A DNA stretch of 64,000 bases from a virus (IMGVR_UViG_3300042402_005180:1-64000); one strand, 5' to 3'. Counted from the first letter of the stretch, positions 45,146 to 64,000 are shown. Notes: generated by a model not told the origin, from the letters alone. Program-made: numbers and translations.

Positions 45146-45242
45146 ATATCGATATAACCTACCGCCGTTCGTATTCGGTTATATTACGAGAATGAGTCGT
45201 GACTCGAAACGGCAAAAAGGCCACCAGCTATTCTCTCGATAT
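45146..45242 (-). ncRNA. Candidate structured RNA (multi-pseudoknot) in the 3' UTR of the tail operon
   Basis: GC-elevated 97-nt non-coding stretch with five perfect 5-8 bp complementary pairs; family not identified. Confidence 0.45.
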
Positions 45243-46213: not shown

Positions 46214-46250
46214 TTAAACCTCCTACGTAGGAAAGAATGATATATCATTA

Positions 46251-46261
46251 TATTATACACA
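46251..46261 (-). promoter_or_regulatory. Phage-specific promoter motif
   Basis: TGTGTATAATA on the - strand 38 nt upstream of ATG 46213. Confidence 0.65.
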
Positions 46262-46468
46262 TTACCACTTATTCAAGGGGCATTTTTCAGAATCCCAAGA
46301 GGCTTTTATTTCTAAATAACATCCACACTCTTTACATTTTGAATTTTCGAATTTATCACAATTATAACAAATGCTAAGTCTTTCATTTTTAATTATTTCG
46401 TCAGCTTTTTTAAATTTATTTGCAGCATGATTAAATAATGACGAAGTAAGATTAAATACTTCTTTCAT
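46262..46468 (-). CDS. DUF6171-like Cys-rich small protein
   Basis: RLSICYNC...CKECGCYL..KASW..EKCPLNKW. Confidence 0.8.
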   Translation of the reverse strand: MKEVFNLTSSLFNHAANKFKKADEIIKNERLSICYNCDKFENSKCKECGCYLEIKASWDSEKCPLNKW

Positions 46469-46818
46469 ATGATAATTTCCTTAATTTCTTCGTTTTCAGA
46501 TTGTTGAAAAGCAAATCGTAGCTCGCAATCTGTGTGAAGATAATGATGTACCGTGAATGATTTTAATCTATTAAAAAAATCCTCATTTTGTTCATTATAT
46601 CGCAAAATTAAATATGAAACAAAATTTGCAATTGCTGGCAAAATTACATTATTCTCAGTGCATTGTGAACATCCAACTTCGTTGTTTGCAATTTTTTTCA
46701 TTTGATCTTTATAGTTTAACATAAAATTAAATTCTGGCAAAATAACATAAAAATCATCTTTTGCCAATGCACCTATAATATATTCTCTATCTATATATTT
46801 AATATTCATTATCCACAA
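46465..46818 (-). CDS. Hypothetical protein with CxxC
   Basis: GCSQC; coupled in the tail operon. Confidence 0.65.
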   Translation of the reverse strand: MWIMNIKYIDREYIIGALAKDDFYVILPEFNFMLNYKDQMKKIANNEVGCSQCTENNVILPAIANFVSYLILRYNEQNEDFFNRLKSFTVHHYLHTDCELRFAFQQSENEEIKEIII

Positions 46819-48530
46819 CTCCCAAGTCTATTATTATCACAACATGATAAGTATATTTTATCAAATACATTTATTCCACATGATTGGCACGATATTGTAG
46901 GTTGATATTCTTTAACTGGACATCCTGTAGCAATGTCAATTATATCTTGTATTGACACATTCATATTTCCATATGTGAATCCTCCACACCCTGCTATTTT
47001 ATCATTAGCATTAATTCCAGCTTCAACTTTTAAAAACCCAGAGCAAGGATTACATGGATCAAATATATTAGGCCCAGAAAAGCACTCTTTATCCTCTTCT
47101 CCATATTGTCTAATATTTATATTAGTATTAAATAAGCCCCCTTGAAAAAGACATGTACCTCCTGCAAATAAACAAGCATCTTCCCAAGATGTCTCATTTT
47201 CCCACCAACCACCTTCATCCATAAATTTTACCAAATATTCGCATCCCGGTGGTAAGTTTTCATCATTTTCTCCGAAATCAGGTCTTGGTATAAATTTTTG
47301 TTTGATTCTTATACATTTAAGCTCATCTAATGGTGGCAAATCAGCACAAGAACATCCTCTATCTCCTTTTCCATGATAGTTTATAAATCTAACTCCTGCT
47401 GGGCACTCTTCAGTTGGATCATCGGGTAGTCCTCTGCTTCCAGCAAATATAGCCGGATAAAATCTAAATTTTCCAGCACTACCGCATTCTCCAAGTTCAG
47501 AGTTAAGTTCACTTGCCCAAGCTCCATAGCTACAATATGTTCGAACCTTATAATATTTATAGCCACAAACCTTATAAGAGGCCCATGCATATTGATTTGC
47601 ACAAAAATTTTCTTCTGTACAGCCAGCATCTGTAACAGGAGGCTTTGATATATTGCAACATCCGCTATACTGACTATAGGGTCCAAGAATCATAAGGAAC
47701 TCATTATTTCCGCTGCTAGATACTGTTCCTCCTCCTGCCGCACCTCCTCCGATTGGTCTCCATTCATAATTAATATTAGCAGCTAAAAAATAATCACCAG
47801 ACTGTAAAGAAAAACTATTATTTCTATTTGTAAGTTGAACTACTTCTTTAACATTTAAACTAGATGGACCGTCTTTTACCATTTCTCCATATGGATTTGG
47901 CTTTACTACTCCTGAATTATTTCTAACTAATGTAAAAGTAGAATACTGAAGATTTTTACCTCTGTATATTTGTCCAGAACCAACTGAAGGAGACGAAAAA
48001 TCACCAGCAGATAAATTACTAACCATTCTACCTTCTATAATTTCTGTGCCACCGGTCCAAACTTTTCTATTGTCATCCCATCTTAAATCAACTGGCCCAG
48101 TTTTCCATTTTGATCGATCAACGGGAGTTTCTAAATTAAATACTCTACCATTTGATCCAGATGGCATTGGAAGTCCACAGACATCATATCCCCACCCTGA
48201 TAAATAAAATGGTCCCTTCCAAACCATAGGTTGCACGCTATGACTTCCGCTAGCAACTGGAAATTTTTTATGATTAAAATCTTTTGTTAATCCCGCCCTT
48301 GCAGTTATAGAATAATCATTTTTATCAAAAAAGAAATATGGATCAAGATCAAAAGAAGTTGGAGAAACATTAAATTTAAAAAATACTCCTGAACATTTAG
48401 CTGTTTGATCTATTGGTCCTTGAGTTGAAGGATACATCAAAGTTGGATCAACCGATATATTTTGCGGAACTTCTGAAATCTGTTTTGCATTCCAAAGAAC
48501 TTGTCTATATCCTGACTGAAAATTAACCAT
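46809..48530 (-). CDS. Tail/baseplate-associated protein with Cys-rich C-terminal half
   Basis: WKTGPVDLRW N-domain, GGGAAGGG hinge, about 24 Cys in the last ~285 aa. Confidence 0.6.
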   Translation of the reverse strand: MVNFQSGYRQVLWNAKQISEVPQNISVDPTLMYPSTQGPIDQTAKCSGVFFKFNVSPTSFDLDPYFFFDKNDYSITARAGLTKDFNHKKFPVASGSHSVQPMVWKGPFYLSGWGYDVCGLPMPSGSNGRVFNLETPVDRSKWKTGPVDLRWDDNRKVWTGGTEIIEGRMVSNLSAGDFSSPSVGSGQIYRGKNLQYSTFTLVRNNSGVVKPNPYGEMVKDGPSSLNVKEVVQLTNRNNSFSLQSGDYFLAANINYEWRPIGGGAAGGGTVSSSGNNEFLMILGPYSQYSGCCNISKPPVTDAGCTEENFCANQYAWASYKVCGYKYYKVRTYCSYGAWASELNSELGECGSAGKFRFYPAIFAGSRGLPDDPTEECPAGVRFINYHGKGDRGCSCADLPPLDELKCIRIKQKFIPRPDFGENDENLPPGCEYLVKFMDEGGWWENETSWEDACLFAGGTCLFQGGLFNTNINIRQYGEEDKECFSGPNIFDPCNPCSGFLKVEAGINANDKIAGCGGFTYGNMNVSIQDIIDIATGCPVKEYQPTISCQSCGINVFDKIYLSCCDNNRLGSCG

Positions 48531-51500
48531 AAAAAATTCCTCCCATTGTTGTGCCTGAGCTTTCCTTTCCTCTTACTTCAAATAGCCCGGAGTTAAATAA
48601 AGCCTTATGTTCTATAGGATATCTTTGATTCCATACATAAGCAGGGCTATAAATTTGTTCATACGATACTCCAAAACTTTCTTCAGGACTAAATCCTAGA
48701 GCCTTCATTGCAGGTTGTGAAGCAGAAGAGTGTGCGTTAATAGCTCCATAGTCTGAAGGTGATTGCGGTTTAATCTGATTAATTGTTCTCCAGAGTGAAT
48801 TATTCCAGTTTGCCCAAATGCCTTGCGCCGAACTTCTATTGATAGAATTAATTTTTTGTTTTTCCATAAAACTAAAAAAAGATTTATTTACAGGAGGAAG
48901 AAAAGCTCTTCTGATAGAATTTCTTATTTCTGTATCTATTTTAAATTTTTCTTTTTGAGAAGTAATTATTCTTTCAATATTATATCTTGCAAGTTCGCCT
49001 CGTTTTTTTGTCCAAGTTGTAAAATTATATGTAGTTTTTATTTCCTCTGAAGAAATGCTAATAGAGATAGTTGTTATATATGGTCCAGTATCAAAAATTT
49101 TATCTGATATATTCCATTTTGGAGTTTCTGAAAATTCTATATATCCTGTTTCTAGTGCATGAATACTTGTTAATTCCGCTTGAGCCATTTGTGAAGCAAA
49201 AATATTCATATCATCTGTGGAACCAAAAGTTTCTGGTTTTAAACTAGTGTCTGCACTAATATTAACTTTACCTTTTCTACCTTCTTTTGCATTAATTTCT
49301 GAACTACTATCCCATCCACTAAATGCCCACCACGGCCCCCAGACATATCTTGTACTTTTTTGAGGAACAGAAATTAAAACAGGCGGCATTTTTGCAGGAG
49401 CGATAGATCCATCAAGAATATTTTCTGAGCCAAACATATTTTGATAACCTACTTTTGTCGATTTTCCAATTTCACTATCGTCTTGGAAAATAAGTTTGGC
49501 AAGAACTCCAAATGCATTTACTTCTGTTGTATATTGATCATATATTTCAACAGATGGAACAGTAACTTTACAAAATCCATAAATTTTATTTAAAACTTTA
49601 TTTCCGGCACTATCAGTCATTAACTGGCCTGATGGAGAAGTTACTGGAAATTTTTGTCCTGCAATTTCTTGATATAGTTTTGTAACGTCAACATATCTAA
49701 TTCCCCAAGCGGTATCAACTGTTGCAGCTCCTAGTATACCTTTTTTTGTTTGATTTGCATTATCTAAATAATCGATAATTGTATATTGGCTATTTAAATC
49801 TGAATAATCAGCTAATATGCCACCCCAAATAGGATCATAACTATATAAAGGGTAGGCAACAGTGCATTTTAATCTTCCGGCTCCACCATCATAAAACGAA
49901 GTGTCAGTAATATATTTTGTAATATCATTTCCTGCCCATGCAGAATTATCAAGCTCCCAAGCGTATTCCGGTTCTTGGTCAAGCTCAATCCATCTAAAAT
50001 TATTTTCAATGCCTCCCGGCTCTGAAGGAACAGCAACTAAAAATTCTTTTCCATAAAAATCATCGGCTATTTTTTTTATTCCATTATATCTTGTATTTAA
50101 AGTTCTTTGCATTATATCTTTTTGTGCGTCTTTTGTTCCAAACATATATGACGCATATAATTCTGCGCTATCTAAACTTGTATCCATTAAATCGTGAGTT
50201 GTTTTATTTCCTTTAAAAACATCTCGAATGTCTTTTAAAGAAAAATTATCAAATCCAGAAATAGTTTTTAATGGAGTATAATAATTCAATTTTAATTGTA
50301 AATCAGTAGGTGCTGCCATCATTAATTTATGATACATATCCCAAGTTTGTCTACTCGATATAGCACATCGCATTTCAAGTAAATTTGTATCAAACCACAG
50401 AAAGTCACCCTCTTTAACAAATGAATTTCTTTGTCCAGTCATATCTAATGCATCAATAACAACTCTAATTGGACTGAAAAAATCTAAATATTGATTCATT
50501 CCAGTTCCATGATAATAAATTGTATTAATTCCAGCTCCCTTTTTACCCCAAATTGGCAACATATGACCTTGATTTGCAAACCAATGTCTAGTAGCATTAT
50601 CTCCAATAATAACTTTTTGAGAAACTAATTCAGTAGTTAGTTCTTTTCCAATTCTATATGATTTTATATTTTTTGACTCATCAGGAACTTTTAACAAATT
50701 AGTTATAATTTTTTTTACTTGATCTGAATCTGATGGTTTTTTTCTTGGCAACATTTTTAATTTTAACGCAGCTTTTTTCATAACTCCTAGATCATCAGCT
50801 ATATATCCTTTAGTTTTATCTTCATCAATATAAATGTAATAATCATACATTGTAATTTCTGAAATATCTCTTAAAAAAGAATTAAAATCAACAAATGTGC
50901 TTTTAATTCTATAGTCATTCAATTCTTTTATAGCAGTCGAAAGATCAGAAATGTCAAACTCATATTCTGTTCCACCAAAAAATAAATTTCCACCAAAAAC
51001 GCCTTTTTTACAACAATCAGTAAAATCTTTGACAAAAGTTGATATAGGATAACCTAATGAATTTCGATCTGCTCCACCAAATTTTCCGCCTTTTCCTATA
51101 TTTTCTTTATATGCATACAAATTAATCATGTTAACTGGCGTATACCAGTTTTTATCTTCAAAAGCAGATTTTGAAATATTGTAAAATTCATAATTAATAG
51201 ATGAGTTATATTGAATAACAGGTTTTGCACTTGGATTAATAATATCATTATCATCAACATAAATTGTACCAATAAAAGATCCAAGAATAAGAAAAACTCC
51301 ATCTAAAAATGAAGAAGGAGAATTAAGCTCTACCTCCCATTTTCTTCCAGAAGAAACATCTTCAACATAACTATATCTTTGTACAATTCCAGCATATTTA
51401 AAAGTTTGATTAGTATCGTCATCTATAATTTTTAACATGCAACAAGTGCCAATTTCAGGAGGCTGAAAATATACATCATCTATTTTTTTGCCCGGACGAG

Positions 51501-51621
51501 AAGGATCGTCTTCTTCTTCTACAAGAGTAATAGAACAAGAAGTATTTTCTCCATTCCATCCAGCACTTATATTTACATCTGTAACATACGCACCTAAGAA
51601 TTTTATTGGTTTTTTTATCAT
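48523..51621 (-). CDS. Large tail/baseplate hub-like protein
   Basis: N-terminal VNISAGW...CSITLVE beta-hub pattern; position downstream of the tape measure. Confidence 0.6.
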   Translation of the reverse strand: MIKKPIKFLGAYVTDVNISAGWNGENTSCSITLVEEEDDPSRPGKKIDDVYFQPPEIGTCCMLKIIDDDTNQTFKYAGIVQRYSYVEDVSSGRKWEVELNSPSSFLDGVFLILGSFIGTIYVDDNDIINPSAKPVIQYNSSINYEFYNISKSAFEDKNWYTPVNMINLYAYKENIGKGGKFGGADRNSLGYPISTFVKDFTDCCKKGVFGGNLFFGGTEYEFDISDLSTAIKELNDYRIKSTFVDFNSFLRDISEITMYDYYIYIDEDKTKGYIADDLGVMKKAALKLKMLPRKKPSDSDQVKKIITNLLKVPDESKNIKSYRIGKELTTELVSQKVIIGDNATRHWFANQGHMLPIWGKKGAGINTIYYHGTGMNQYLDFFSPIRVVIDALDMTGQRNSFVKEGDFLWFDTNLLEMRCAISSRQTWDMYHKLMMAAPTDLQLKLNYYTPLKTISGFDNFSLKDIRDVFKGNKTTHDLMDTSLDSAELYASYMFGTKDAQKDIMQRTLNTRYNGIKKIADDFYGKEFLVAVPSEPGGIENNFRWIELDQEPEYAWELDNSAWAGNDITKYITDTSFYDGGAGRLKCTVAYPLYSYDPIWGGILADYSDLNSQYTIIDYLDNANQTKKGILGAATVDTAWGIRYVDVTKLYQEIAGQKFPVTSPSGQLMTDSAGNKVLNKIYGFCKVTVPSVEIYDQYTTEVNAFGVLAKLIFQDDSEIGKSTKVGYQNMFGSENILDGSIAPAKMPPVLISVPQKSTRYVWGPWWAFSGWDSSSEINAKEGRKGKVNISADTSLKPETFGSTDDMNIFASQMAQAELTSIHALETGYIEFSETPKWNISDKIFDTGPYITTISISISSEEIKTTYNFTTWTKKRGELARYNIERIITSQKEKFKIDTEIRNSIRRAFLPPVNKSFFSFMEKQKINSINRSSAQGIWANWNNSLWRTINQIKPQSPSDYGAINAHSSASQPAMKALGFSPEESFGVSYEQIYSPAYVWNQRYPIEHKALFNSGLFEVRGKESSGTTMGGIFYG

Positions 51622-53711
51622 GGCTTAGTAAATATCCATCCTGCTGTAATTGATAATTTTCCCGCAGGCCAATCCCACGAATAATTTAAATCCGTTAAAT
51701 AAGCCTGTGTTTTTAATCCGGCATTAAATGTCCCACTTGGTATAAATTTCATAGCTGCTTCAAGAGCATTTGAAACAACTGGAGAATTAGGGTGTCTATG
51801 TTCAGCCCCATAAATAGCTTCTATTTGAATTGTTCTTTTTGATTCTTTTGTTGTATTCATATCCTGAATTATTGGCCCTTTATCTCTTCCAAGAATCATA
51901 ACTGGAATAACATGCTTTGTTCTATATATTGTTGGATTTGAAGAACCAGCAGTAACAAAATTTTCCTGAGATTGGTTGACACTTACGCTTAAAGCTCCAA
52001 AAGATGATCTCAGTGATCGAACAGTCTCAGCAATACCTTTATATGTTGCACTAAATTGTATAGATCCTGCTATTTTATTTTCAGTAATAGATGTTGTTAT
52101 TGGTTTCCAGTCAAGAACATTGTCAACAGCATAATAACTAGCATATTGATTATTTCTAAAAATTTCATCAGCAAAAGCATAAACTATAGTTCCATATGCC
52201 CACGGTTTAATGATATTTGTTGTAGAGTATGGAGAGGTAGATAGTTCTTTTCCGGGATCTTTTAATATTCCTGTTAATTGACTAGTGATTACATTTCCAC
52301 TTCCAGTTCCATAAATAGAACTTGGATAAATTGGTTGCACAGAGGAGTAAGACTCTGGATCATTAATTCTATCTGTAGTAGTTGACTGAATAGTAGGATT
52401 TGATGTTGATTGATCAATAACACCACTAGATATTAATTTTTTAAATAAAATTTGTGCATTCTTAAATTTATTTTGTCTATCTGAATTTACACCCAAAGAG
52501 TCTAATCCTTGAATTGTACCTTCTACTCTTACAATGTCATCTCCATCTTCACCCTTTTCAAAAGATCCATTTATTTCAATAGTTGCAGGATTTCTAGAAT
52601 AAAAATAATTAGTTGTAATAGAATATGACCCACCAATAATATCAATATTGGATGAGCGAATAACATTATATTCTCCATATTTTCCTGAACCGTGCATTCC
52701 GGCAGCATGTTGCTGTCCGCTTACAGAATCCCAAAAAAGATTACTAACCATTCCACTAGCGCCAACTCTTTCTCCAAGAGAATTAGTCGTGCCATTCCAC
52801 CCGTTTATAGTTGAAGCAGCAGTACCTGAAACAGAGTTGCTAACATCCCATCCTACAGGATAAAAAGCATTACTTCCAACAAAAGGGCGTCCAAGGGGAT
52901 CAAGATTAATCATTACATTAATCAAACTATCCTTCTTTTTATCATTTACATATTTGTATGCTTCATAAAACGCTTCATACTTTTGATTAGTTTGAAAATT
53001 GCTGGGACTTGGAGCAGGAGATGGAGTAGTATAACCTAAAGTAGTATTATAATCAGTTGCTGATTGATTATAAAACATTGTCTGACCCTGTGCAGAAAGT
53101 GTATGAGTTATACTATATGAGTAATAAGGATCATCTGCTAAATATCTTATAATACCATTAGCATCTGTGCCCATAACAAAATAAGACATTTTGTCTTCTT
53201 CTTTTTTAACTTCAAATTGCTCACTCGCAGTTTTTAAACGATACTTAGTTGCAATATTATCAGTGGGAGGTGTAATCGACTCAAAGTTGAATGTAACTTC
53301 TTGATAATGAATCCCCGCTGTATCTTCAGGAGGCTCTCCAACGGATACACTCATTAACTGAGCAAAGTTATAAGATACTAGTGGCTGTCCGACTGTTTGA
53401 TAATTTCCATTTACAAGAGTCATCTTATATATTTGAAGAGGACCAGATTGTAAACTAACTAGTCTATCTACAAGCTGCGAGCCTTTAAAATCAGCATATT
53501 CTACTGATTTTTGTAACAAATCTTCATATCTATCTTCTGGGGTATTTCCAATAGCGGTAAATGCGCCTCTAATGGTAATGGAATGCTTTTCGCTTACAAT
53601 TGTTCCATCGTCAAGTCTATTAAAGTCTTTAGAAATTGCAGACGCAAATCCATATTCCAATATTAACTCTTGTCCGGCAAATAAAATACTAACTTTATCA
53701 CTACTTGTCAT
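51618..53711 (-). CDS. Tail protein (distal-tail/tube-like)
   Basis: Beta-rich; position in tail operon; ATGA overlaps. Confidence 0.55.
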   Translation of the reverse strand: MTSSDKVSILFAGQELILEYGFASAISKDFNRLDDGTIVSEKHSITIRGAFTAIGNTPEDRYEDLLQKSVEYADFKGSQLVDRLVSLQSGPLQIYKMTLVNGNYQTVGQPLVSYNFAQLMSVSVGEPPEDTAGIHYQEVTFNFESITPPTDNIATKYRLKTASEQFEVKKEEDKMSYFVMGTDANGIIRYLADDPYYSYSITHTLSAQGQTMFYNQSATDYNTTLGYTTPSPAPSPSNFQTNQKYEAFYEAYKYVNDKKKDSLINVMINLDPLGRPFVGSNAFYPVGWDVSNSVSGTAASTINGWNGTTNSLGERVGASGMVSNLFWDSVSGQQHAAGMHGSGKYGEYNVIRSSNIDIIGGSYSITTNYFYSRNPATIEINGSFEKGEDGDDIVRVEGTIQGLDSLGVNSDRQNKFKNAQILFKKLISSGVIDQSTSNPTIQSTTTDRINDPESYSSVQPIYPSSIYGTGSGNVITSQLTGILKDPGKELSTSPYSTTNIIKPWAYGTIVYAFADEIFRNNQYASYYAVDNVLDWKPITTSITENKIAGSIQFSATYKGIAETVRSLRSSFGALSVSVNQSQENFVTAGSSNPTIYRTKHVIPVMILGRDKGPIIQDMNTTKESKRTIQIEAIYGAEHRHPNSPVVSNALEAAMKFIPSGTFNAGLKTQAYLTDLNYSWDWPAGKLSITAGWIFTKP

Positions 53712-56700
53712 AATCTTGTCCCACGAACGTAGATTGGTATTGAAGAATTATTTTCCGTTGGATATACTTCTCCAGAGGTATACAAATTAATTCCACTACT
53801 TGCTAAGTATGCGCCCTTTGTAAAAAGATCCAAACCTCCTGAACTATAAGTATTATACACAGTTAATGGCATACCGGCTTCTATAATTCTTTTAATAAAT
53901 AAATTCATTGAACCAGAATTTTCTACCCCATGTAGTATGTCTGATCCAAGCATAGAAAGAGATATTTGACTAAAAGAAAATCCACTAGGATTATTAACAA
54001 ATAAATCTAATACGCCGCTATTTTCAGGAAATGGATAATTTATAGTCATATTCATTCCTTGTCCATAGTCATCATAGGGGCGAGTTTTTAGACTTAAATT
54101 AAACGATCCAGAAGAATTTGGAACTCCTGTGTGATGATTATCAATCATAAGAGATAGGCTAGTAAAGTTATCTTGAGTTGTGATGGTAGCAAAAGAGTCA
54201 TTCGTTTCAACTATATTTCCATCTTCGTCCATTTTAAAGTTTGAAAAAGTTTTTACTGTTAGCGGGAAATATCCACTAAATATTGGACTTATAACTAATG
54301 TTAAACTATCTTCTGCTTTTTGATCACTTATAAATAAACTTAAATTTCCAGTAGTTGTATCAATTTGTTTAGCAAATAGATTAAGTCCAGAATTATAAAG
54401 ATCAATTTGCTTTATAAATAAATCTACACCAGTTGGCTTTGGATCATATTCACTAAATGCACTTATTCTAAAATATAATCCAGAATTATTAGGCGATCCC
54501 TCAAGAGTTTTTATACTTAATGGTAAAAATTTTCTATCTTGATATGAAGTTGAAATAATTCTTGTATTTGAAACTCCATCAAAACCATCAAGGACATCTA
54601 GTGAAGTAATAAATCTACCATCAGAAGATCCGGCAAATGAAGAGTCTGAAGGTTGTATTCTTAATATTCCTAAGTTTGAAGTATTATTACTATTTAAAAT
54701 TTTATGATGATTTCTACATTTGAATTTTTTGGAAATTCCATCATATGTAAAAAATGCATATTCATAATAATCACGTAACACAAGAGCATCATTATAAATA
54801 TCGTATTTACCATATAAATCAATTAAATAAGTTACACTACTATTAGTTGTTCCATCATATGATAAATTAGAAGTTGGAGTATACAAATTTTGATTTATAT
54901 TATTATAATTTCCAATATCAATTGTTGGAGATATTCTATGTGAATAATAATATTTATTAATTCTATGATCAAATTCATATACATTTATATAACTTATTGT
55001 TTTTGTTGTATTTCCACTATCGTCAATTTTTGACAAAGAGTCTATAACAATAAAATCATTTTCTACAGCAAAATAATTTCCAAATCCACTATTTCCAACT
55101 GAAGTTATCGTTTGAGATAAATTATAATTTATACCAGATACATCATAAATATACAACTGCTCTTGGCCTCTATATGTTGCAGACCACCCAATAAATACTT
55201 TATCTTCCGTAGAATCTAAACTCAAGCCATAATTTTGAAGTTCTTTTATTTGATCATTTGCTTTAGTTGAAGTATATGTTGTCTGATTAACAATTCCACT
55301 CATGTTTGAAAAAGCGTTTGTCTGCAAATCATATTTAAAAACTTTTGATGTTGCATCGACATAATTCATTCTTGAATTATTAGTAAATCCAGCACTCTTA
55401 ACATTCGTAGATGCGGTGCAATATATTCCACTATCTATAATATTAAATACTGCACTTTTGCCAAAAGAATCAACAAATCCATATTCATTTATATATAGAT
55501 TTTGTTCAGGCATTTCTATTCCATACACAGGATCATAACTATAATTTTTATTCCAAGAATAGTATCTAGCGCCAAGCCAATAATTATCAGATGGATTATT
55601 AAATATATTTTTTACAGTTATTACATCTATTGGAGAATTTGAAATATTGCCTTCTAGCTTATGAGTTTGATTTGTTAGTTCATACGAAGACCAAGGATTA
55701 TTTGAAACTCCTGTAGAGTTTAAATATTCAATATTATATGGAGATTTTGTAATTTTATAAAAATGAACTTTTCCATAGGGTAAAAATGTTGGTATAGCAA
55801 ATTGATTTTCAGGGATTGGAAAAATTTCTTGAGGATTTTGATTTGTTTGTTGTTGTATTATATAATCTTCAAATATTTTGAAAGAAACTTCTGCTCCCGG
55901 TTCTGAGACCATAAGAATGTATTCATTATTATTTAATTTTTTTATACGACAATCAGATCCGAATTTATTTCCGTTATCTAATGTTGTTAGCGCATTCGGA
56001 TTACTAGCAATTCTTTGATAAGGATAAAAGTTTGTCCAAGAAATCCAGCTATTTAAGCGAGACTGAAGCGTTTGCAAAGAAGAAGATGGTTCATACTTGT
56101 TAGTTTCCACTGCTCTTGAAAGTAGTGTTTGTCCGCTTCCAGATTCGACTACTGTTCTTAGTTGGGGAATAAAGCCATATCCATTTTTTCCATTTGGAGA
56201 ATAAAGAGTATGATTATATTTCCATGCAGAGCCACCAATCGCTGTCCACTGAACCCCTGAAGTTGTTAACAATCCAGATGTATCCATTGGAGAAGTAAAT
56301 GAGCTATCAAAATAAATATCAAATTTATTTTGATTTATTCCACTTATATATCTAAAACCATTAATATCTGAAAATCCAAGACCGCAACTAATTTTTATTC
56401 TGTCGCCAGTAGATAGATTGTGTCCAGACGAAGTAATAGTATTTCCACTAGCTTCAGTTACTATTCCCATTTTTTTTGTATATATATCAACTTTTCCACA
56501 AGAAGGATAATTAGCAACTTTAATAACTTCTACTGTATCAAAATATATAGAATTATTTTTAATTAAAAAGATACCATATGTTAATGGGTCTAATAGGCTA
56601 CCGTTATCGCTTGGTTGATTAAATATTTTTTTATATCTAGGAACAATATCAGGAGAATTTGGGTCAGCTAAATCTTGACCAGAAAGCGTATTATTTAAAG

Positions 56701-57952
56701 TCGTTACAGAGTTTACAGTTTGTGGAATTATGTAACTACTTAATGTAACAAATAAATAGTCTCCTGATGTTTCCCTATAAACAATATACCATTTATAGCC
56801 TTCGCTATCTTGCAAAGATTGAATTGTATTCGATGAAAATGGTAAATATGACCTAGTTAAATTTTCAGACCTTGCTAAATAATCACTTACAGATAAAAAT
56901 CCACCAAATTTATAAATATATTCTGTTGTATCAGAATTTAATATAACTATATTATCATTAAAAGAAGATGATTTTGTATAATTTATTTTTAAAAATACAT
57001 CACTATAATCAGGAAATTCCTGAGATAACCAGTATCCACCTAAAGGAGTATTTGACTCTAGTTCTTCTGTATTTAATGAATCATTATCATCAGCCTGATG
57101 ATTATTTAAAAATTCTGGCTTTTGAAAAATATCTACTAAATTTTTAATATTAAAATAAGTTATAGTTTGCTGTAATCCAACATCTAATGGAGAAAAGGTA
57201 TTATAATAGCACTGATCATTTTTTAAATAAGTTCCAGAGCCACAGCCAAGTCCTCCGGGATAATATACAGCCGTGCCACTAGATGGACCAGATACAGGAT
57301 CATTAAATTCATCATAATCTCCAGTCAAAGTATAAGTAGGTTGAGCTGTTGAATAAACAACTATTTGATTATTATAATAATTATGAGGAACATCAATAGT
57401 TAAAGCCTGTTGACCTAAATTATTCTGGTAATTTATTATTACTTGACCATTACCATAATTAGGATGATGAGAGTCAATTTCAAAAGTCCAGTCTGTTAAT
57501 GTATATGATGATTGAGAAGATTGACTTGCAGACAATATATCTACATTATATAAATTATCAGAAGTAATCAAAACTCCAGAAATATCATATTCAGTAGTAA
57601 ATTTTTCTGTACTGGTCCAATCTTTTACTCCTATAACTGCTATATCATCCTTCATATCAATCATATCAACATACCAATTTGATTGTAAATCATAATTAAT
57701 ATAATTTTTACCATTATTATTTCCGTAATGATAATCATATTTATTTACTGAAAAATCAGTAAGATTAATACTTAACTCGTTTAAAGTTGATGAATTTATT
57801 AAATCTGGTCCATATATACTAGTGTCCCATGCAGTTTCATGTGGTATGTAATTAGAATTGTCGGCCTGAACTCTAAGAGGAACATGCCCAAACTGACCAC
57901 TTCCATTAGACGAGAATATATTTAAATTTAGTCCTTGATTATTATTGTTCAT
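53708..57952 (-). CDS. Large tail protein with FCCH-like beta module, propeller-like repeats and C-terminal SG-x-x-L-F repeats
   Basis: ITSSGHNLSTGDRIKIS...INGFRYI; KFGSD/SFGKS/NYGLSL/GFGNY blades; N/S/T-rich. Confidence 0.6.
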   Translation of the reverse strand: MNNNNQGLNLNIFSSNGSGQFGHVPLRVQADNSNYIPHETAWDTSIYGPDLINSSTLNELSINLTDFSVNKYDYHYGNNNGKNYINYDLQSNWYVDMIDMKDDIAVIGVKDWTSTEKFTTEYDISGVLITSDNLYNVDILSASQSSQSSYTLTDWTFEIDSHHPNYGNGQVIINYQNNLGQQALTIDVPHNYYNNQIVVYSTAQPTYTLTGDYDEFNDPVSGPSSGTAVYYPGGLGCGSGTYLKNDQCYYNTFSPLDVGLQQTITYFNIKNLVDIFQKPEFLNNHQADDNDSLNTEELESNTPLGGYWLSQEFPDYSDVFLKINYTKSSSFNDNIVILNSDTTEYIYKFGGFLSVSDYLARSENLTRSYLPFSSNTIQSLQDSEGYKWYIVYRETSGDYLFVTLSSYIIPQTVNSVTTLNNTLSGQDLADPNSPDIVPRYKKIFNQPSDNGSLLDPLTYGIFLIKNNSIYFDTVEVIKVANYPSCGKVDIYTKKMGIVTEASGNTITSSGHNLSTGDRIKISCGLGFSDINGFRYISGINQNKFDIYFDSSFTSPMDTSGLLTTSGVQWTAIGGSAWKYNHTLYSPNGKNGYGFIPQLRTVVESGSGQTLLSRAVETNKYEPSSSLQTLQSRLNSWISWTNFYPYQRIASNPNALTTLDNGNKFGSDCRIKKLNNNEYILMVSEPGAEVSFKIFEDYIIQQQTNQNPQEIFPIPENQFAIPTFLPYGKVHFYKITKSPYNIEYLNSTGVSNNPWSSYELTNQTHKLEGNISNSPIDVITVKNIFNNPSDNYWLGARYYSWNKNYSYDPVYGIEMPEQNLYINEYGFVDSFGKSAVFNIIDSGIYCTASTNVKSAGFTNNSRMNYVDATSKVFKYDLQTNAFSNMSGIVNQTTYTSTKANDQIKELQNYGLSLDSTEDKVFIGWSATYRGQEQLYIYDVSGINYNLSQTITSVGNSGFGNYFAVENDFIVIDSLSKIDDSGNTTKTISYINVYEFDHRINKYYYSHRISPTIDIGNYNNINQNLYTPTSNLSYDGTTNSSVTYLIDLYGKYDIYNDALVLRDYYEYAFFTYDGISKKFKCRNHHKILNSNNTSNLGILRIQPSDSSFAGSSDGRFITSLDVLDGFDGVSNTRIISTSYQDRKFLPLSIKTLEGSPNNSGLYFRISAFSEYDPKPTGVDLFIKQIDLYNSGLNLFAKQIDTTTGNLSLFISDQKAEDSLTLVISPIFSGYFPLTVKTFSNFKMDEDGNIVETNDSFATITTQDNFTSLSLMIDNHHTGVPNSSGSFNLSLKTRPYDDYGQGMNMTINYPFPENSGVLDLFVNNPSGFSFSQISLSMLGSDILHGVENSGSMNLFIKRIIEAGMPLTVYNTYSSGGLDLFTKGAYLASSGINLYTSGEVYPTENNSSIPIYVRGTRL
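53851..53861 (-). promoter_or_regulatory. Phage-specific promoter motif
   Basis: TGTGTATAATA on the - strand 140 nt upstream of ATG 53711. Confidence 0.5.
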
Positions 57953-60900
57953 CTCTTCTCTTGCCTATTATTTAATTGAATTTGATTTAATACTTCTGTC
58001 CTAATTTGACCAATAATAGCATCAGATAATTGTTTAGCAATTTCTGGGCCATTAACTCCAGTTACAGCTATACTTCCATCAACCGTCATGGTATGCTGAA
58101 CAGTGATTCCTGCAAATTGATTAGCTAAATTAGCAAGCGTTTCTGTAAAAGACGAAAAAGTAGCAGCAATTGAATTAAGTGATTCAACACTCTGGGCGAA
58201 TCCTGTCATATCAGGAGGCATTGCTCCAGCTCCAGCCGCACCCGGATTGACTGCTGCGTTGGCTTGCTGTGCCGGAGTCGTAGCCATTGACTGACGCTGC
58301 TGCTGTGCCATAGACTGAGAAATCATAGTTTTTTGCTGAACAATCGGACCGCTTACTTTACTACTTCCAGAAGATTGAACTTTTTTAGGATTCAAAAATC
58401 CTTCCATTTTTCTAGTATTTATTGATCTTTGCTTTAACCACTCTTCTGCTTTTTGCATATAAGCTATTTTAGGATCTCGTCCTCTTTTTGCAATTTCATC
58501 AGCTTGTTTTTGATCTTCTGCTTTTGCTTCCTTAATCGCTTGTTCTTTTGCTTTTCTATATTCCCTCATATCCATAATATCATTAATATTTTTTCCTTCT
58601 TTATTTTTATATACTCCTTGTTCAATTTGCTTTCTTACCTCATCAAGACGAGAACGTATATTTCCACTTCTTCTAGATGGTAAACCAAGCTGGTCAATGT
58701 TACCACCATTTGCATAATATCCAGCATTTATTTTTTGTAAATTTCCAGCTCCAAACTTATCAACTGCTCTTTTATTTACAACAAATTCGCCGGGAGTAAG
58801 CATGGCTGGAACAGTGTCTGTGCCACGAGGAGTAAAACCGCCGCCAGCACGATAGATTAAACCACCTGTAGATTTTTTTTCTGTTCCGTCAAATTTATCT
58901 TTAACTTGTTGAAACATATTATCAATTCTTTGAAGAAACTTCTCAATGCTCTGATCTATCGTTGCAATATCGCTATCTATTTTTGTTAATCTTGCTTCTG
59001 CCGCTTTCTTTTGAGCTTGTAAGGCTTCTGGAGTTTCAAGATTTTGTGGACCACCAGCCGGTCTAAGTTCTGCTGCTTTTTCTTGAGTTTCTTTAACTAA
59101 ATTATTTAACGATTGAGTATTCATTTGAATAGATTGATTCAACATATCCTGATGTAACATTTCTTCTAGAAGCATAGCTCTTCTAGCTTTTTCTTCTTGG
59201 GCATAGATATTTCCTAGCTCTTGAATCATTTGCTGCTCAGGACCGGAAGTATCATTAGCAATTGCCATTGCTCCTTCAACATTCCCCATTTGCATCATCT
59301 TGTTTGCCATAAGTTGATTTTGAACTTCTTTTCCTGTCATTCCACCAAATGCTTTAACATCTTTAAATTGATCAAGCAAGCCACTTACACCAGATTTTAA
59401 TTCATCCGGAATAGATTCAATATCACCACTCTGCATGGCATCTCTAAGAGCAACCATAATATCTTCTTGTTTATCTTTTTCTTCTCTTGTTCCAAATAAA
59501 TAACTTTTCGTAGCATCTCTTGCAGTTTCTCTTTGAGCTTTTAATTTTTCAAGTTCAAATAGAGTATCAGCAGTTCTAGAACTTTGATTTGATAACTCTT
59601 TTAACGACTGTTTTAATTTTGTAGATTCTTCTAGTAATCCAGCCTTTTTACCTATATCTGTTTCTTTAGCTAGACTAGTTCTAATATCTCTTAATCTTTT
59701 TCCAATTGCTTCTGGGTTTCCAGCATATTTTCCAGCTAACATATTTTGACGATTAGTTCTTAATGCATTTTTTTCTGTTAATGTTAGAATTTTACCCTGA
59801 GCATTTGCAACATTCTTTACTAATTCTTGAAAACTGTCAGCACCTTCTAGTTCAATATCAAGCTGTCTTTTTCTTGATTGTGCAATTTCATCATACGCCT
59901 TGGTAATAGATGCCTCATGATCCTGCATTGCCTTTAAAATTCTTCCGCCACCTTCTTGAAGAATCTTTGCATAGTTTTCTATATTATCTTGAATTCTTTT
60001 TGCTATTTCAGCGCCACTAGAAACGCCTTCTCTTGGAGTAATTTCAGAAGATTTTGTTTCTTTTTCGATTGATTCTCTAATTGCTTTTCCAACATCTGTT
60101 CCGCCATCTATTCCAATAGATTGAATAAAACTATCAATTTCTTTAGAGCTTGCTCCAACTCTTAATGTATTTTTTTCTAAACCAACTTTTAATTTTGGCA
60201 TAACTCCATTTAGTTGATTAAATTTATCTGCTAATTCTTTGCCAATAGGACCAACACTGGAAATTGTATCCATAGCTTTTTTGAAATCAGGAGAATTGGC
60301 AGCATTAGGAGCTGATAAACTTAACACATCAGCATTCGGCACGCTCGAAGAAAATGCACTTAATGAGTCACCAAACATTGCTCCCGCATTGACAATTGAA
60401 TCATTTGCCTTTTTAATACTATATTCAAAATTTTCCAATCCAATAGATAAAGCTAATTGATCAGCTAAAGTTCCAATTAATTTTTTTCTAATTGCTTCTT
60501 CTTCGGCAAGAGCTTGTTTTTGTTTAATAATTTGAATAGCAGCTTCTGTTGCAGACTTTTCTAACTCTAGTTCGCCTTTCTCTGCTCTTTTTTCATTAAG
60601 TCCGCCTTTGCCAAAAGTTAAGGATTGAATCTGCTTACCCATAAATTGAGCAAAATCACCCTTTGGGGTTCCAGCTTTACCAGCGCCTCTTAATAGATCT
60701 TCTATTTTTGCTCCATACTGACTTTTTGTTTCCGCTGTTGTTCTTTTGCTTATATTTTCTTTTTGACTTTCAACAATTTTACTAATTTCTCCACCAACAT
60801 CAACACCCTTTGTTCCAATTTTATTACCTAACTGAGTTATTTGCCTTGCATATTCAGCGCCAATAATTTGATCAAGAGCTTTGCCAAATTCATCTGCTTT

Positions 60901-63900
60901 TTCTTTTGCTTGTTTTATTTGATCACCAAATAATTTCTGTGCTTCTACTAAAGAGCCAGCAGCATTCATATACTTTAATTCAGCATTAGTAGCTGCATCT
61001 AAAGATTGAACAAACTTAGTTGTACTAGCTGCCGCCTGATCTGAAACTTGTTTATCGGTTTTTTTATCAATAGAACCCATGAACTTTTGAAGTTTTTGAG
61101 TTTCTTCAGCAGAAGTTTTAAAACTAACTGCTAGACTAGCACTTGCTGCATTTAAATCATCAAGCATTTGTTTTTGTTTAGCTTCAGCTCTAGCAACTTG
61201 ATCTTGATATTGTAAATACGCGCCTCCAAAAGCGCCAGCAGTAGCCCCTATACCAGCTCCGACTAAAGTTCCTCCGGGAACTCCTGTAGCAGTTCCAGCT
61301 ACACCACCTACTTTTCCGCCTATTATTCCTCCTCCTATAGCAGCTCCAAGAATTTTCATAATAGATTTTGAATCTGATCCAATTTTACCCATCAAAGATG
61401 CTTTGGCTTTATCTGAAGACGCTTGAGATATATCTGATGTTAGTTTTCCTGTAGAAACTTTGCTAGCATCTTTAAACAATGCATCAATCGTTTCATTCAT
61501 TTTCTTAGCTGATTTTTCAGAAACTTCAGCGTAATAAGCAGCATTAGCTGCCGCAATTGCCATTACAGCAGAGAATCCAGTTATAATACCGTCAAAAATA
61601 ACCATGCCCTTATCTAGTTTGCTTATTGTTCCACCAATTCCAGAACCTCCTGCTGTAGATCCAGCCTTACTGCCTACTGATCCAGATTTTATCTGTGTAG
61701 CAGCTTGATTTGCTGCATTAGCATGATTCTTCATTGCAGCGGCACTTTGAGCTAATGCTAATTTTTCCTGTTTACGTTGTTGCATTGTTTCAATAATACC
61801 TAATCCAAAATTCTTTAAATTTTGTCCAATGCCTTGGTAAACAGTAAATGTAGCAGTTAAAGCACCATAATAAGCCTTTTGTTCATCTGAAAGAGTAGTA
61901 AATTGAGTGACAACACTTCCAATTGCACTACCTAACAAGAGAAGATTTTGAATATTTGTTTGCGAAGCCTTTTGTAATTGTTGTTCCTGATTATTTGAAG
62001 TATTAGAAGCTGCTTCTTTATAAGTAGCTTTGAGTTCTTTACTAATTTTAAAATTAGCTGCATCTTTTTTAATTTCGGCAAAACCTTCTTTAATTAATTT
62101 AGAACTATCTAGACCAGCTTTATTTAAAGCCTCAACCATCTTTATAAATGTTTGAATTTGCTTATTACCACTGCCTAATGCTGCTCCAGATGCTGTTGGT
62201 CCTTGGGTAAGAGCTTGTCTGCTCATTTTTCTAATTTCAACAAGCATTTTTAAGGTAGCTGGATCAACTGTTCCTCCAGTTGCAAAATATTGAACTCCAA
62301 CGGGTCCACCATTAGCAAACTTTCCAACCTTATTCATTCTATTTAAAGATGAATATCCAATTGCTTGAGCAGATTGTTTATTAATTACAAATTCGCCCGG
62401 AGTTAGCATAGCGGGAACGGTGTCGGTTCCACTAGTCTTTCCTCCAGTTGCAAAATTTTTAATTGAAGCGAGAACGGCTTCTCTTCCTTCATAAGAAGGT
62501 CCAAATTTCTTTTTTGCTCTAATAATATTTTTATTATCTGATGATGGTTTTTGGTAGGCGTATTGTAATGCCCAATCTGGATCTTCTTTTTTAGGCCAAG
62601 TTAATTTAAGTTTTTCTATATCCTTTTCTGGTTTAGTTTGAAATTTACCTGATGCATTATTCCAATTATTATAGTCCATTAATTTTTTATTAACGTCCTG
62701 CCTATTCAAATAATAATTTTTCCAGACTCCAGCGGCATTTTTTGAGATATTTGTGTCGGGAGCAACCCAAGAACCAATTTTTGCTGCCTCTTCTAATAAC
62801 GCATCGTATAGTTTAGGTCCATATCCTGAAGTTGCATAAGAAAACTTCACTCGATAAAAATTATCTTTATTTTTTTTAGCTTCTACAAAACCAGTTCTAT
62901 CATTTTCTCCATCGACATATCTAGCTAATATATCATTTTTACCTGAAAATATTTCTATATTACCATAATTTTTGTTTTTACTAAAGTCATGTCCTGTAAT
63001 TTGGCTAAGTTTAATTTTATCTTGTTTTCCAAGATAAGAAACTAAATCCGATATTCCTGAATCGTAATATTTAAAAATATTTTTTATTTCATCGTTAATT
63101 TCAAATTTATCTTTAAATTTATTTTTTAAATCTTCATCTTTCAGCTTAGATAATCCATAAGCAGCTATAAATGATTTTGTAGAACTATTTCTATCCTTAC
63201 TATTACTTTTTTGTATTAATCCCAATTCTCTATATTTAGATAAACTCTCTGCAAAATTAGGAGATAGATTAGCAGTCTTAATAAAATTACTTTGTAATTC
63301 ATCATCTCTGTGTTTTGATAACACACTATCAAGAGATTCTTTATTATTAGGTTTATAGTGGCTCTGCTGATCAACTTCTCCGCCAATCGCTAAATGTTGA
63401 ACTCCTACTGCGCCACCATTAGCAAATTTAGCAACTTTATTCATACGATGCAAATTGCTATAACCAATCTTTTGAGCTGATTGTTTATTAATAACGAATT
63501 CGCCCGGAGTAAGCATGGCTGGAACAGTATCAGTACCACTAGCAAATCCTCCGCTAGCAAATCTAGAAACTCTATCTGCACGTGGCCCTTTTTGTCTTAA
63601 TGCATCAAGTGCTGGCTGTTTTGTTTTTCCTTCTGTAAAAACCATATTTGAAACTGGAATACCAAATACACTAGATAAGTATTCGGCAAGACCGGGAGTT
63701 CTGCCAGACTTACTAATAATCTGCATTTTACGAGGATTAATTTGACCACTTTCAACAGCGTCTTTTAATGCTTTTCCAAACTGTGTCAAGGGCGCTGATT
63801 TTACATCTGCTAATCTTGCAGCATCATCTCTAAAATATCTTTTAAGAACTTCTGCCTGAGCTTTTTTTGTAGGGGCTTTTGCGTATGCCTGATCACCAAT

Positions 63901-63999
63901 TGTTCTTTTTAGCGTGCGATCCATATCAACTGCGCCGCCACCAGCATCAATGATTGCCTGAATAGCCTTTACTGGATGGGGCAAAATGGCTCCTGTAGC
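57949..63999 (-). CDS. Tape-measure-like protein, over 2000 aa, 5' end outside the window
   Basis: Long Ala/Lys/Gln helical regions; Gly-zipper TM segment (GAAIGGGIIGG...GAGIGATAGAFGG); three GTDTVPAMLTPGEFV modules; frame stays open to the window edge. Confidence 0.85.
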   Translation of the reverse strand, partial: ATGAILPHPVKAIQAIIDAGGGAVDMDRTLKRTIGDQAYAKAPTKKAQAEVLKRYFRDDAARLADVKSAPLTQFGKALKDAVESGQINPRKMQIISKSGRTPGLAEYLSSVFGIPVSNMVFTEGKTKQPALDALRQKGPRADRVSRFASGGFASGTDTVPAMLTPGEFVINKQSAQKIGYSNLHRMNKVAKFANGGAVGVQHLAIGGEVDQQSHYKPNNKESLDSVLSKHRDDELQSNFIKTANLSPNFAESLSKYRELGLIQKSNSKDRNSSTKSFIAAYGLSKLKDEDLKNKFKDKFEINDEIKNIFKYYDSGISDLVSYLGKQDKIKLSQITGHDFSKNKNYGNIEIFSGKNDILARYVDGENDRTGFVEAKKNKDNFYRVKFSYATSGYGPKLYDALLEEAAKIGSWVAPDTNISKNAAGVWKNYYLNRQDVNKKLMDYNNWNNASGKFQTKPEKDIEKLKLTWPKKEDPDWALQYAYQKPSSDNKNIIRAKKKFGPSYEGREAVLASIKNFATGGKTSGTDTVPAMLTPGEFVINKQSAQAIGYSSLNRMNKVGKFANGGPVGVQYFATGGTVDPATLKMLVEIRKMSRQALTQGPTASGAALGSGNKQIQTFIKMVEALNKAGLDSSKLIKEGFAEIKKDAANFKISKELKATYKEAASNTSNNQEQQLQKASQTNIQNLLLLGSAIGSVVTQFTTLSDEQKAYYGALTATFTVYQGIGQNLKNFGLGIIETMQQRKQEKLALAQSAAAMKNHANAANQAATQIKSGSVGSKAGSTAGGSGIGGTISKLDKGMVIFDGIITGFSAVMAIAAANAAYYAEVSEKSAKKMNETIDALFKDASKVSTGKLTSDISQASSDKAKASLMGKIGSDSKSIMKILGAAIGGGIIGGKVGGVAGTATGVPGGTLVGAGIGATAGAFGGAYLQYQDQVARAEAKQKQMLDDLNAASASLAVSFKTSAEETQKLQKFMGSIDKKTDKQVSDQAAASTTKFVQSLDAATNAELKYMNAAGSLVEAQKLFGDQIKQAKEKADEFGKALDQIIGAEYARQITQLGNKIGTKGVDVGGEISKIVESQKENISKRTTAETKSQYGAKIEDLLRGAGKAGTPKGDFAQFMGKQIQSLTFGKGGLNEKRAEKGELELEKSATEAAIQIIKQKQALAEEEAIRKKLIGTLADQLALSIGLENFEYSIKKANDSIVNAGAMFGDSLSAFSSSVPNADVLSLSAPNAANSPDFKKAMDTISSVGPIGKELADKFNQLNGVMPKLKVGLEKNTLRVGASSKEIDSFIQSIGIDGGTDVGKAIRESIEKETKSSEITPREGVSSGAEIAKRIQDNIENYAKILQEGGGRILKAMQDHEASITKAYDEIAQSRKRQLDIELEGADSFQELVKNVANAQGKILTLTEKNALRTNRQNMLAGKYAGNPEAIGKRLRDIRTSLAKETDIGKKAGLLEESTKLKQSLKELSNQSSRTADTLFELEKLKAQRETARDATKSYLFGTREEKDKQEDIMVALRDAMQSGDIESIPDELKSGVSGLLDQFKDVKAFGGMTGKEVQNQLMANKMMQMGNVEGAMAIANDTSGPEQQMIQELGNIYAQEEKARRAMLLEEMLHQDMLNQSIQMNTQSLNNLVKETQEKAAELRPAGGPQNLETPEALQAQKKAAEARLTKIDSDIATIDQSIEKFLQRIDNMFQQVKDKFDGTEKKSTGGLIYRAGGGFTPRGTDTVPAMLTPGEFVVNKRAVDKFGAGNLQKINAGYYANGGNIDQLGLPSRRSGNIRSRLDEVRKQIEQGVYKNKEGKNINDIMDMREYRKAKEQAIKEAKAEDQKQADEIAKRGRDPKIAYMQKAEEWLKQRSINTRKMEGFLNPKKVQSSGSSKVSGPIVQQKTMISQSMAQQQRQSMATTPAQQANAAVNPGAAGAGAMPPDMTGFAQSVESLNSIAATFSSFTETLANLANQFAGITVQHTMTVDGSIAVTGVNGPEIAKQLSDAIIGQIRTEVLNQIQLNNRQEKR
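58702..58875 (-). repeat. xxGG...GTDTVPAMLTPGEFV...ANGG module, copy 3
   Basis: KSTGG.IYRAGGG...GTDTVPAMLTPGEFVVNK...YYANGG. Confidence 0.85.
62272..62457 (-). repeat. FAxGG...GTDTVPAMLTPGEFV module, copy 2
   Basis: NFATGG...GTDTVPAMLTPGEFVINKQSAQAIGYSSLNRMNKVGKFANGGPVGVQYFATGG. Confidence 0.9.
63379..63564 (-). repeat. FAxGG...GTDTVPAMLTPGEFV module, copy 1
   Basis: RFASGG...GTDTVPAMLTPGEFVINKQSAQKIGYSNLHRMNKVAKFANGGAVGVQHLAIGG. Confidence 0.9.
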
Positions 64000-64000
64000 C

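Follow-up and report, generated by a model that had tools for sequence, protein, structure and literature searches.

The 64,000-nucleotide stretch analysed here (the window) comprises bases 1-64000 of the 77,674-bp viral IMG/VR record IMGVR_UViG_3300042402_005180. Its longest open reading frame (ORF), one uninterrupted frame on the minus strand that is truncated by the window end, encodes a tail tape measure protein (TMP). In the record, the full ORF spans positions 57949-66648 and encodes 2899 amino acids (aa). The N-terminal core (aa 1-458), which is located beyond the window, matched TIGR01760 (E 3.4e-27, 95.4 bits, cut-off 28.8) and PF10145 (E 5.3e-22, 79.1 bits, cut-off 33.2), and many TMP PHROGs match the same region. 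By these family profiles, the protein is identified as a TP901-type TMP. From the N-terminus to the C-terminus, it is composed of the N-terminal core, junction module M0, the X unit, a bare FAEGG joint, the HAD-like unit, module M1, the GNAT-fold unit, module M2, a helical glycine-zipper body, module M3, and a putative hub-binding tail (Table 1). We designate the region of the X and HAD-like units InsA and the insert between M1 and M2 InsB.

The modules are defined by the exact 13-mer DTVPAMLTPGEFV, which was found 4 times in the TMP (aa 473, 1040, 1409, and 2611). Each of the 4 modules, M0 to M3, is ~55-64 aa long and has the layout [FY]AxGG, then G-x-DTVPAMLTPGEFV-x-K...G..L..N, then a second [FY]AxGG. 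Ten [FY]AxGG-type joints were observed versus 0.97 expected, the highest count among 2000 shuffles being 5, and all 10 are located at module edges except the bare FAEGG at aa 866. The initial annotation had described 2 near-identical modules flanking a globular insert of ~307 aa and a third copy near the C-terminus; the flanking pair (M1 and M2), an insert of 305 aa, and the C-terminal copy (M3) are all present, and the total is 4, M0 lying outside the window. M1 and M2 share 88% protein identity (43 aa) and 77% nucleotide (nt) identity, and 17 of their 38 identical residues use different codons. A recent duplication of M1 and M2 was ruled out by this nt identity and the strongly diverged synonymous sites. 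The synonymous divergence combined with the kept protein sequence therefore identifies M1 and M2 as old copies under purifying selection. In 18 related TMP loci, whose cores are 85% to 39% identical, the number of modules is 2-5 in all but one, and it reaches up to 8 in giant TMPs; the module subtypes are position-specific and retained across relatives. In the freshwater run X11, which covers only the M1-InsB-M2 part at 90% or more, a contig at L004 4466-4745 continues past the M2 core as KIGYSDLHRM. This variant is nearer to the second half of M1 than to that of M2, which hints that the flanking modules have exchanged sequence.

Comparison of the TMP with its relatives revealed that (i) a single high-scoring segment pair of 85% identity to the TMP of locus L005 extends over aa 1-510 and ends together with M0, nothing in InsA matches, and the neighbouring genes of L005 are 50-91% identical; (ii) the TMP and the natural variant P0003 (2827 aa) agree at 1420 of 1450 residues as far as the ...KVGKFA of M2, their identity is ~25-30% from the M2 FANGG on, and in M3 it is ~98% between KSTGG and YYANGG, whose flanks could not be aligned; (iii) over L004 4404-7804, a 31.3-kb contig from the lake metagenome of another study has 40 differences and 5 gaps (~98.8% nt identity) and is colinear from M0 through M2. 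The DNA break of this contig lies 2 nt beyond the codons of the M2 distal FANGG (window 62303), after which 2.8 kb are replaced by 2.64 kb of unlike sequence. An island of identity at M3 (window 58703-58881), flanked on each side by replaced sequence, has its distal border at the end of YANGG. The contig is probably the P0003 variant; therefore, the protein and DNA breakpoints count as a single line of evidence. Low-support joints in runs X8 and X10 were disregarded. These comparisons show that the module edges are points where related phages exchange segments, as proposed when the modules were first interpreted as recombination cassettes, and the helical body is itself an exchanged segment.

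Table 1. Units of the tape measure protein (window coordinates unless stated otherwise)
Feature	Coordinates	Strand	Remarks
TMP ORF, window part	57949..64000	-	aa 884-2899 + stop; from ORF list and translation
M0	record 65113-65274, outside window	-	13-mer at aa 473
HAD-like unit, window part	63565..64000	-	aa 871-1028 (record 63565-64038); DMDRT, IISKS; preceded by bare FAEGG joint (aa 866)
M1	63373..63564	-	aa 1029-1092; FASGG, DTVPAMLTPGEFV core, FANGG, LAIGG; module HMM (hidden Markov model) E 2e-27
InsB	62458..63372	-	aa 1093-1397, 305 aa; ~120 aa of low-confidence helices, then B domain
B domain core	62503..63012	-	aa 1213-1382; predicted GNAT-like fold; motifs SGYGPKLYD, S..A...W..Y
M2	62266..62457	-	aa 1398-1461; module HMM E 2e-26
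M2 distal FANGG joint, mosaic breakpoint	62305..62319	-	from DNA and protein comparison with the variant
Helical glycine-zipper body	58855..62265	-	aa 1462-2598; helix-favouring by composition
M3	58699..58854	-	aa 2599-2650; module HMM E 2e-25
C-terminal tail	57952..58698	-	aa 2651-2899; final ~90-100 aa conserved

InsB was noticed initially as more AT-rich than its flanks, and its GC content is indeed 0.22-0.31 versus 0.36-0.42. The third-position GC content of the insert (0.125-0.173) matches that of the body (0.155). A foreign origin of InsB, suggested by the AT-richness, was ruled out by this equality; the AT-richness is therefore explained by an amino-acid composition rich in Lys, Asn, and Tyr. 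An AlphaFold2 (AF2) model of InsB built with 60 sequences has a predicted local distance difference test (pLDDT) score of ~90 over residues 121-290, which form a β-sheet/helix domain (the B domain). The proposed contrast between the insert and the helical body thus applies to the C-terminal 170 aa, which are non-helical, and not to the first ~120 aa, which are modelled as low-confidence helices. In a Foldseek search of the PDB with the B domain, GNAT acetyltransferases ranked first (prob 0.97-0.99, E 6e-3). Comparison with 48,161 chains by VIA-align yielded Z scores of 7.5 to 5.4, the top 50 being nearly all GNATs, including AcrVA5 and AtaT; the best matches were 3lod (Z 7.5, root-mean-square deviation 3.7, 110 aligned residues) and 5us1 (Z 7.3). 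A BFVD search retrieved phage NAT_SF/GNAT proteins from E 4e-5, and a language-model search of InsB gave a faint GNAT hint. The predicted fold shows the B domain as a GNAT acetyltransferase fold. Across the 60 sequences, G183, G185, and P186 never vary, and conservation is also seen at S210, A213, W217, and Y220; in our reading, the G-x-G-P motif and the S..A...W..Y helix look like GNAT motifs A and B of the coenzyme A (CoA)-binding type.

Searches of Pfam, PHROG, and NCBIfam assigned no family to InsA or InsB, and Pfam assigned none to 10 stand-alone relatives of the B domain. A whole-library HMMER search retrieved 181 B-domain relatives, in which conservation is limited to InsB residues ~127-293. 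Modules occur in 63 of the 74 relatives that are 900 aa or longer, and the same TMP core in 52; these long relatives reach up to 7122 aa with 8 modules. The B domain is thus found again in more than 60 clusters of giant TMPs. The 18 nearest TMPs have no counterpart of InsB, and the searches for related loci revealed no relatives of InsB or InsA in viral contigs, nor of InsB in metagenome contigs. Three further proteins, P0015 (1367 aa), P0049 (1532 aa), and P0087 (1520 aa), consist of 3-4 tandem B domains with neither a junction module nor a TMP core.

The InsA region upstream of M1 contains the DxDxT motif that was reported initially, which reads DMDRT (aa 908-912). Aligned by hhalign, aa 906-1000 of this unit matched the HAD-like region of giant TMPs (prob 94.7%, E 6e-8), and the unit is 58% identical to P0009 and 41% identical to P0086. 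In the giant TMPs, the ~165-aa region includes all 4 HAD motifs (DFDETL, ILTARPQ, K, and LIDD). At the motif level, the DxDxT segment is accordingly described here as a putative divergent relative of that region. Pfam at E <= 5 found nothing for the window HAD-like unit or for the L019 unit, and on 11 giant TMPs it found the TMP core only; a HAD-like profile of 7 TMPs had no match among PDB sequences, and a named-cluster language-model search of the HAD-like region returned nothing usable. The X domain (aa 636-713) is located in slot 1, outside the window. Its motifs GN.FE, FDFP.GLG, and PTDAK do not vary among 11 slot-1 sequences and correspond in this TMP to IEGYVLE, WDFP, and GDAKR (aa 644-703). 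The motif order E...D...DxK makes X resemble a PD-(D/E)xK nuclease. A search with aa 560-800 found no homologous protein. Ten of the 18 relatives have X in slot 1, and X is therefore a conserved resident of this slot.

Conservation among the 18 relatives extends to the core, the modules, and the final ~90 aa; they share very little of InsA and nothing of InsB. The initial annotation had expected variable inserts between conserved modules and conserved helical regions. The inserts do vary and the modules are kept, but the helical body is not conserved, with identities of 25-32% even to relatives whose cores are 75-85% identical. In locus L020, slot 1 (L020:6293-7915, TMP aa 615-1155), between the first and second modules, encodes an ADP-ribosyltransferase (ART) exoenzyme (PF03496, E 1.8e-16, above cut-off). 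An inter-module segment of locus L022 (L022:15209-17986, TMP aa 1828-2753) has a weak EF-hand match (E 2e-4), below cut-off. The notion of swappable enzyme cargo is supported by the predicted GNAT fold of InsB and by the ART in the L020 slot; it is restricted by X, which is a resident of its slot, and by the joint occurrence of the X, HAD-like, and GNAT-like domains.

This joint occurrence is most evident in giant TP901-type TMPs of 4000-7100 aa with up to 8 modules, such as P0022 (7122 aa), P0007, P0033, P0045, and other B-domain matches. A recurrent cassette of a HAD-like domain (DFDETL, ILTARPQ, K, LIDD), X, B, and a module was observed in P0020, P0024, P0025, P0027, P0029, P0031, P0036, P0038, P0040, and P0058 and in the L019 TMP (aa 986-1232); Pfam recognised none of its 3 domains. 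The usual order in the giants is HAD, X, B, and module: in 42 of 58 cases a module comes no more than 60 aa after B, in 25 of 38 X lies at most 150 aa ahead of B, and a module just upstream of B, as in this TMP, is rare (3 of 49). The order X, joint, HAD-like, M1, B, and M2 is a permutation of the set found in the giants. That the HAD-like, X, and B domains travel together suggests a joint function. If they were fully helical, the giant TMPs would imply micrometre-long tails; therefore, much of their length is probably cargo and not ruler.

A profile built from 54 module copies matched residues 732-791 of lambda gpH in an hmmsearch of PDB sequences (E 1.8e-5), and hhalign aligned the module with gpH 732-786 over 52 columns (prob 95.4%, E 1.9e-8). 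This gpH region (FATGG ... GEFV ... YATGG) is thus the lambda homologue of the module. The same module occurs twice (residues 964-1028 and 1411-1472, E 4.4e-11) in the 1699-aa TMP of the mycobacteriophage Douge, gp16. The family model TIGR01541 (tape_meas_lam_C) did not match the 4 modules, or M3 together with the C-terminus, at E <= 10, and as a positive control it matched gpH 681-853 with E 3.1e-52. The relation between the module and gpH is accordingly best regarded as sub-domain homology, not as membership of the TIGR01541 family, and the 4 modules of this TMP can be viewed, by sequence, as a multiplied form of the single gpH module (732-786).

In lambda, gpH is cut in a Gly-rich region at residues ~690-730, which yields gpH* and gpHC, neither the exact site nor the catalyst being known (PMC12617516). 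The module is located directly after this cleaved region, inside gpHC, the far C-terminus of which binds the hub (PMC12617516). Residues 690-817 of gpH are unresolved in structures (PMC12617516), and residues 1658-1699 alone are resolved in the Douge TMP (PMC13033339); therefore, the module is without known structure or function. Chain S of PDB 8zdo is Douge gp16, from a phage that has been cultured and structurally studied, and both module copies lie outside the resolved map. The TMP described here and lambda gpH differ in that gpH has one module and no enzyme domain, whereas here 4 modules fence enzyme-like units; the N-terminal core here is TP901-type, not lambda-type; and, of the two, cleavage is known for gpH only.

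The remaining regions of the TMP are the body and the C-terminal tail. In the body, a hydrophobic glycine-zipper stretch (window 61213-61353, aa ~1766-1812) has a weak NCBIfam glycine-zipper match (E 0.0015); such stretches are typical of TMP membrane-insertion segments. The last ~90-100 aa of the TMP are 77% identical to L005 and ~90% identical to P0003. By analogy with lambda and Douge, we infer that the extreme C-terminus is the hub-binding end.

The TMP ORF is followed on the same strand by ORFs of 1414, 697, 1032, and 573 aa. Family searches matched no named family for the neighbouring ORFs. Nearly all structural-module neighbours in window 45242-57952 and record 66748-77674 (L004:8849-19775) are without a Pfam or PHROG match, that is to say, the downstream ORFs just listed together with one of 323 aa and ten upstream ORFs. 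The sole exception is a 381-aa protein, the N-terminus of which resembles tail-fibre proteins. In tblastn searches, cultured phages matched the N-terminal core only, at ~25% identity (the SPbeta group), or isolated modules. The M1-InsB-M2 stretch is present in 13 or more metagenome runs from lakes or fresh water and is therefore real and from a lake phage; no RNA run is among the public runs listed. The lineage is a poorly charted one of lake phages.

Taken together, these results are best explained by a mosaic TP901-type TMP in which segments are joined by a ~55-aa module and enzyme-type units are carried in the tail and delivered, a reading to which we assign a probability of roughly 0.6; the tail probably carries an exchangeable enzyme set into the host. 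As is usual for TMPs, the whole protein would sit in the tail lumen, its globular units probably not fully folded, and would be expelled into the host envelope and cytoplasm ahead of the DNA. The enzyme units could then act before any phage gene expression. More speculatively, the [FY]AxGG joints might also be cleaved, as gpH is cleaved to gpH* and gpHC beside its module, which would release the units as free proteins; this step is conceivable and, on balance, doubtful. A stronger form of the same idea, somewhat less probable again, is that the module is a self-contained processing signal and that the joints are cut autocatalytically or by some tail or host protease. Multi-module TMPs would then be true polyproteins that free an acetyltransferase, phosphatase, nuclease, or ADP-ribosyltransferase at DNA entry.

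Several observations weigh against the main reading. The GNAT assignment is supported by fold alone, with moderate scores (Z <=7.5, Foldseek E 6e-3), and no curated GNAT model of Pfam or NCBIfam matched InsB. The HAD-like and nuclease-like readings are based on motifs: the HAD-like copy in the window has DMDRT, IISKS, and the Lys, but a single Asp (ALDA) where the giants have LIDD. Structure prediction, which gave the GNAT fold for InsB, produced an unreliable and unusable model for slot 1 (aa 513-860, 11-row alignment, mean pLDDT 49.8). Three other mosaic borders (aa ~2383, 2468, and 2811) are located away from modules. X, HAD-like, and B co-occur in many TMPs and may be one functional set rather than independent swappable effectors. 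A folded domain of ~170 aa in 3-6 copies fits poorly into a siphophage tail lumen. No peptidase was found (Prok-JAB in the record, Pfam peptidases among the neighbours), a weak negative given that the record is ~52% complete. Cleavage, virion presence, enzyme activity, and delivery are all putative.

The most serious alternative, which we nevertheless consider unlikely, is that the modules are uncut structural or assembly elements, making contacts with the tube lumen, a chaperone, or the hub or serving as hinges; the tethered domains would aid envelope penetration or channel formation, and exchange would be a by-product of module conservation. A conserved binding partner would fit the 13-mer, which is invariant across TMPs with cores just 40% identical, and the failure to find a protease in the record fits uncut modules as well. 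TMP cleavage is known for lambda and T5 only (PMC12617516), and the known TMP-embedded enzymes target the cell wall (PMC10194240, PMC12617516). By contrast, GNAT and ADP-ribosyltransferase folds use cytoplasmic cofactors (acyl-CoA and NAD) and are typical of host-modifying effectors, the single lambda module lies inside the cleaved-off gpHC fragment, and not all modules can touch the hub when they occupy as many as 8 internal positions.

It is more improbable that the inserts are degenerate, non-catalytic remnants that act as spacers or length filler in a fast-evolving, repeat-rich TMP, with the motifs as relics. InsA and InsB without a curated family match, the HAD-like copy without a clear motif IV, the low confidence of the slot-1 model, and the low-confidence helices in the N-terminal 120 aa of InsB would all be expected of remnants. 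However, the 60 B-domain sequences show no variation in G-x-G-P and W and almost none in Y, D, S, A, Y, R, and D, as would be the case for a working CoA site; long phage contigs encode genuine stand-alone copies of the B domain; the divergence of synonymous sites beneath a conserved protein sequence indicates purifying selection; and the L020 ART matches 173 of 196 profile positions. A chimeric assembly, or a very recent in-gene duplication devoid of function, can be dismissed as the source of the duplicated modules and the insert: although the record is metagenome-derived and repeats may mislead assemblers, the stretch is whole or largely present in many independent lake runs, the 31-kb contig spans M0-M2, the DNA identity of M1 and M2 is just 77%, and the same architecture exists in dozens of contigs.

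The proposed delivery of enzyme units by a mosaic TMP can be compared with known systems. Enzymatic domains within a TMP that leaves the tail at infection are found in TM4 (motif 3), T5 pb2, the SPbeta YomI-like lytic transglycosylase TMPs, and Douge gp16; TM4 motif 3 and T5 pb2 are examples of cell-wall hydrolases. The SPbeta-type TMPs share the core with this TMP, and Douge gp16 shares the module in 2 copies. The known embedded TMP enzymes are cell-wall hydrolases (PMC10194240, PMC12617516). By contrast, the units here are GNAT-, HAD-, and nuclease-like, with an ART in a relative, that is to say, of cytoplasm-type activities. A literature search for module-fenced cargo cassettes, the motif string, and TMP-borne effectors found no prior description.

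Polyvalent proteins of phages and conjugative elements combine several unrelated enzymatic domains in one virion-associated polypeptide, including GNAT beside ART (Iyer et al. 2017, PMC5512222); delivery with the DNA, and in some cases autoprocessing, is presumed for them (PMC5512222). They are packaged into heads or delivered by conjugation, and fusions to MuF, ParB, or a metallopeptidase are frequent (PMC5512222), whereas the carrier here is a TMP and the units are parted by a dedicated junction module; tape measure proteins are mentioned 0 times in PMC5512222. Compared with these proteins, our TMP has one fold-supported domain (GNAT) and 2 motif-level domains, and its virion delivery would follow from its identity as a TMP. 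The ADP-ribosyltransferase Alt of T4 is a ready-made host-modifying enzyme that the virion carries and injects along with the DNA. Alt would resemble the units described here as a virion-carried host-modifying enzyme and differs in being a separate head-packaged protein outside the tail ruler.

The TMP therefore unites 2 ideas, embedded TMP enzymes and injected multi-enzyme proteins, through putative cytoplasm-type folds in the tail ruler, and a dedicated conserved module marks where phages exchange these enzyme folds. Lambda (one copy) and Douge (2 copies), which are both cultured, could show directly whether the module is a processing signal. If it is, the long-sought determinant of the cleavage of lambda gpH to gpH* would be identified. 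If the domains are delivered, such TMPs would constitute a large untapped reservoir of immediate-early host-takeover or anti-defence enzymes in freshwater and marine phages.

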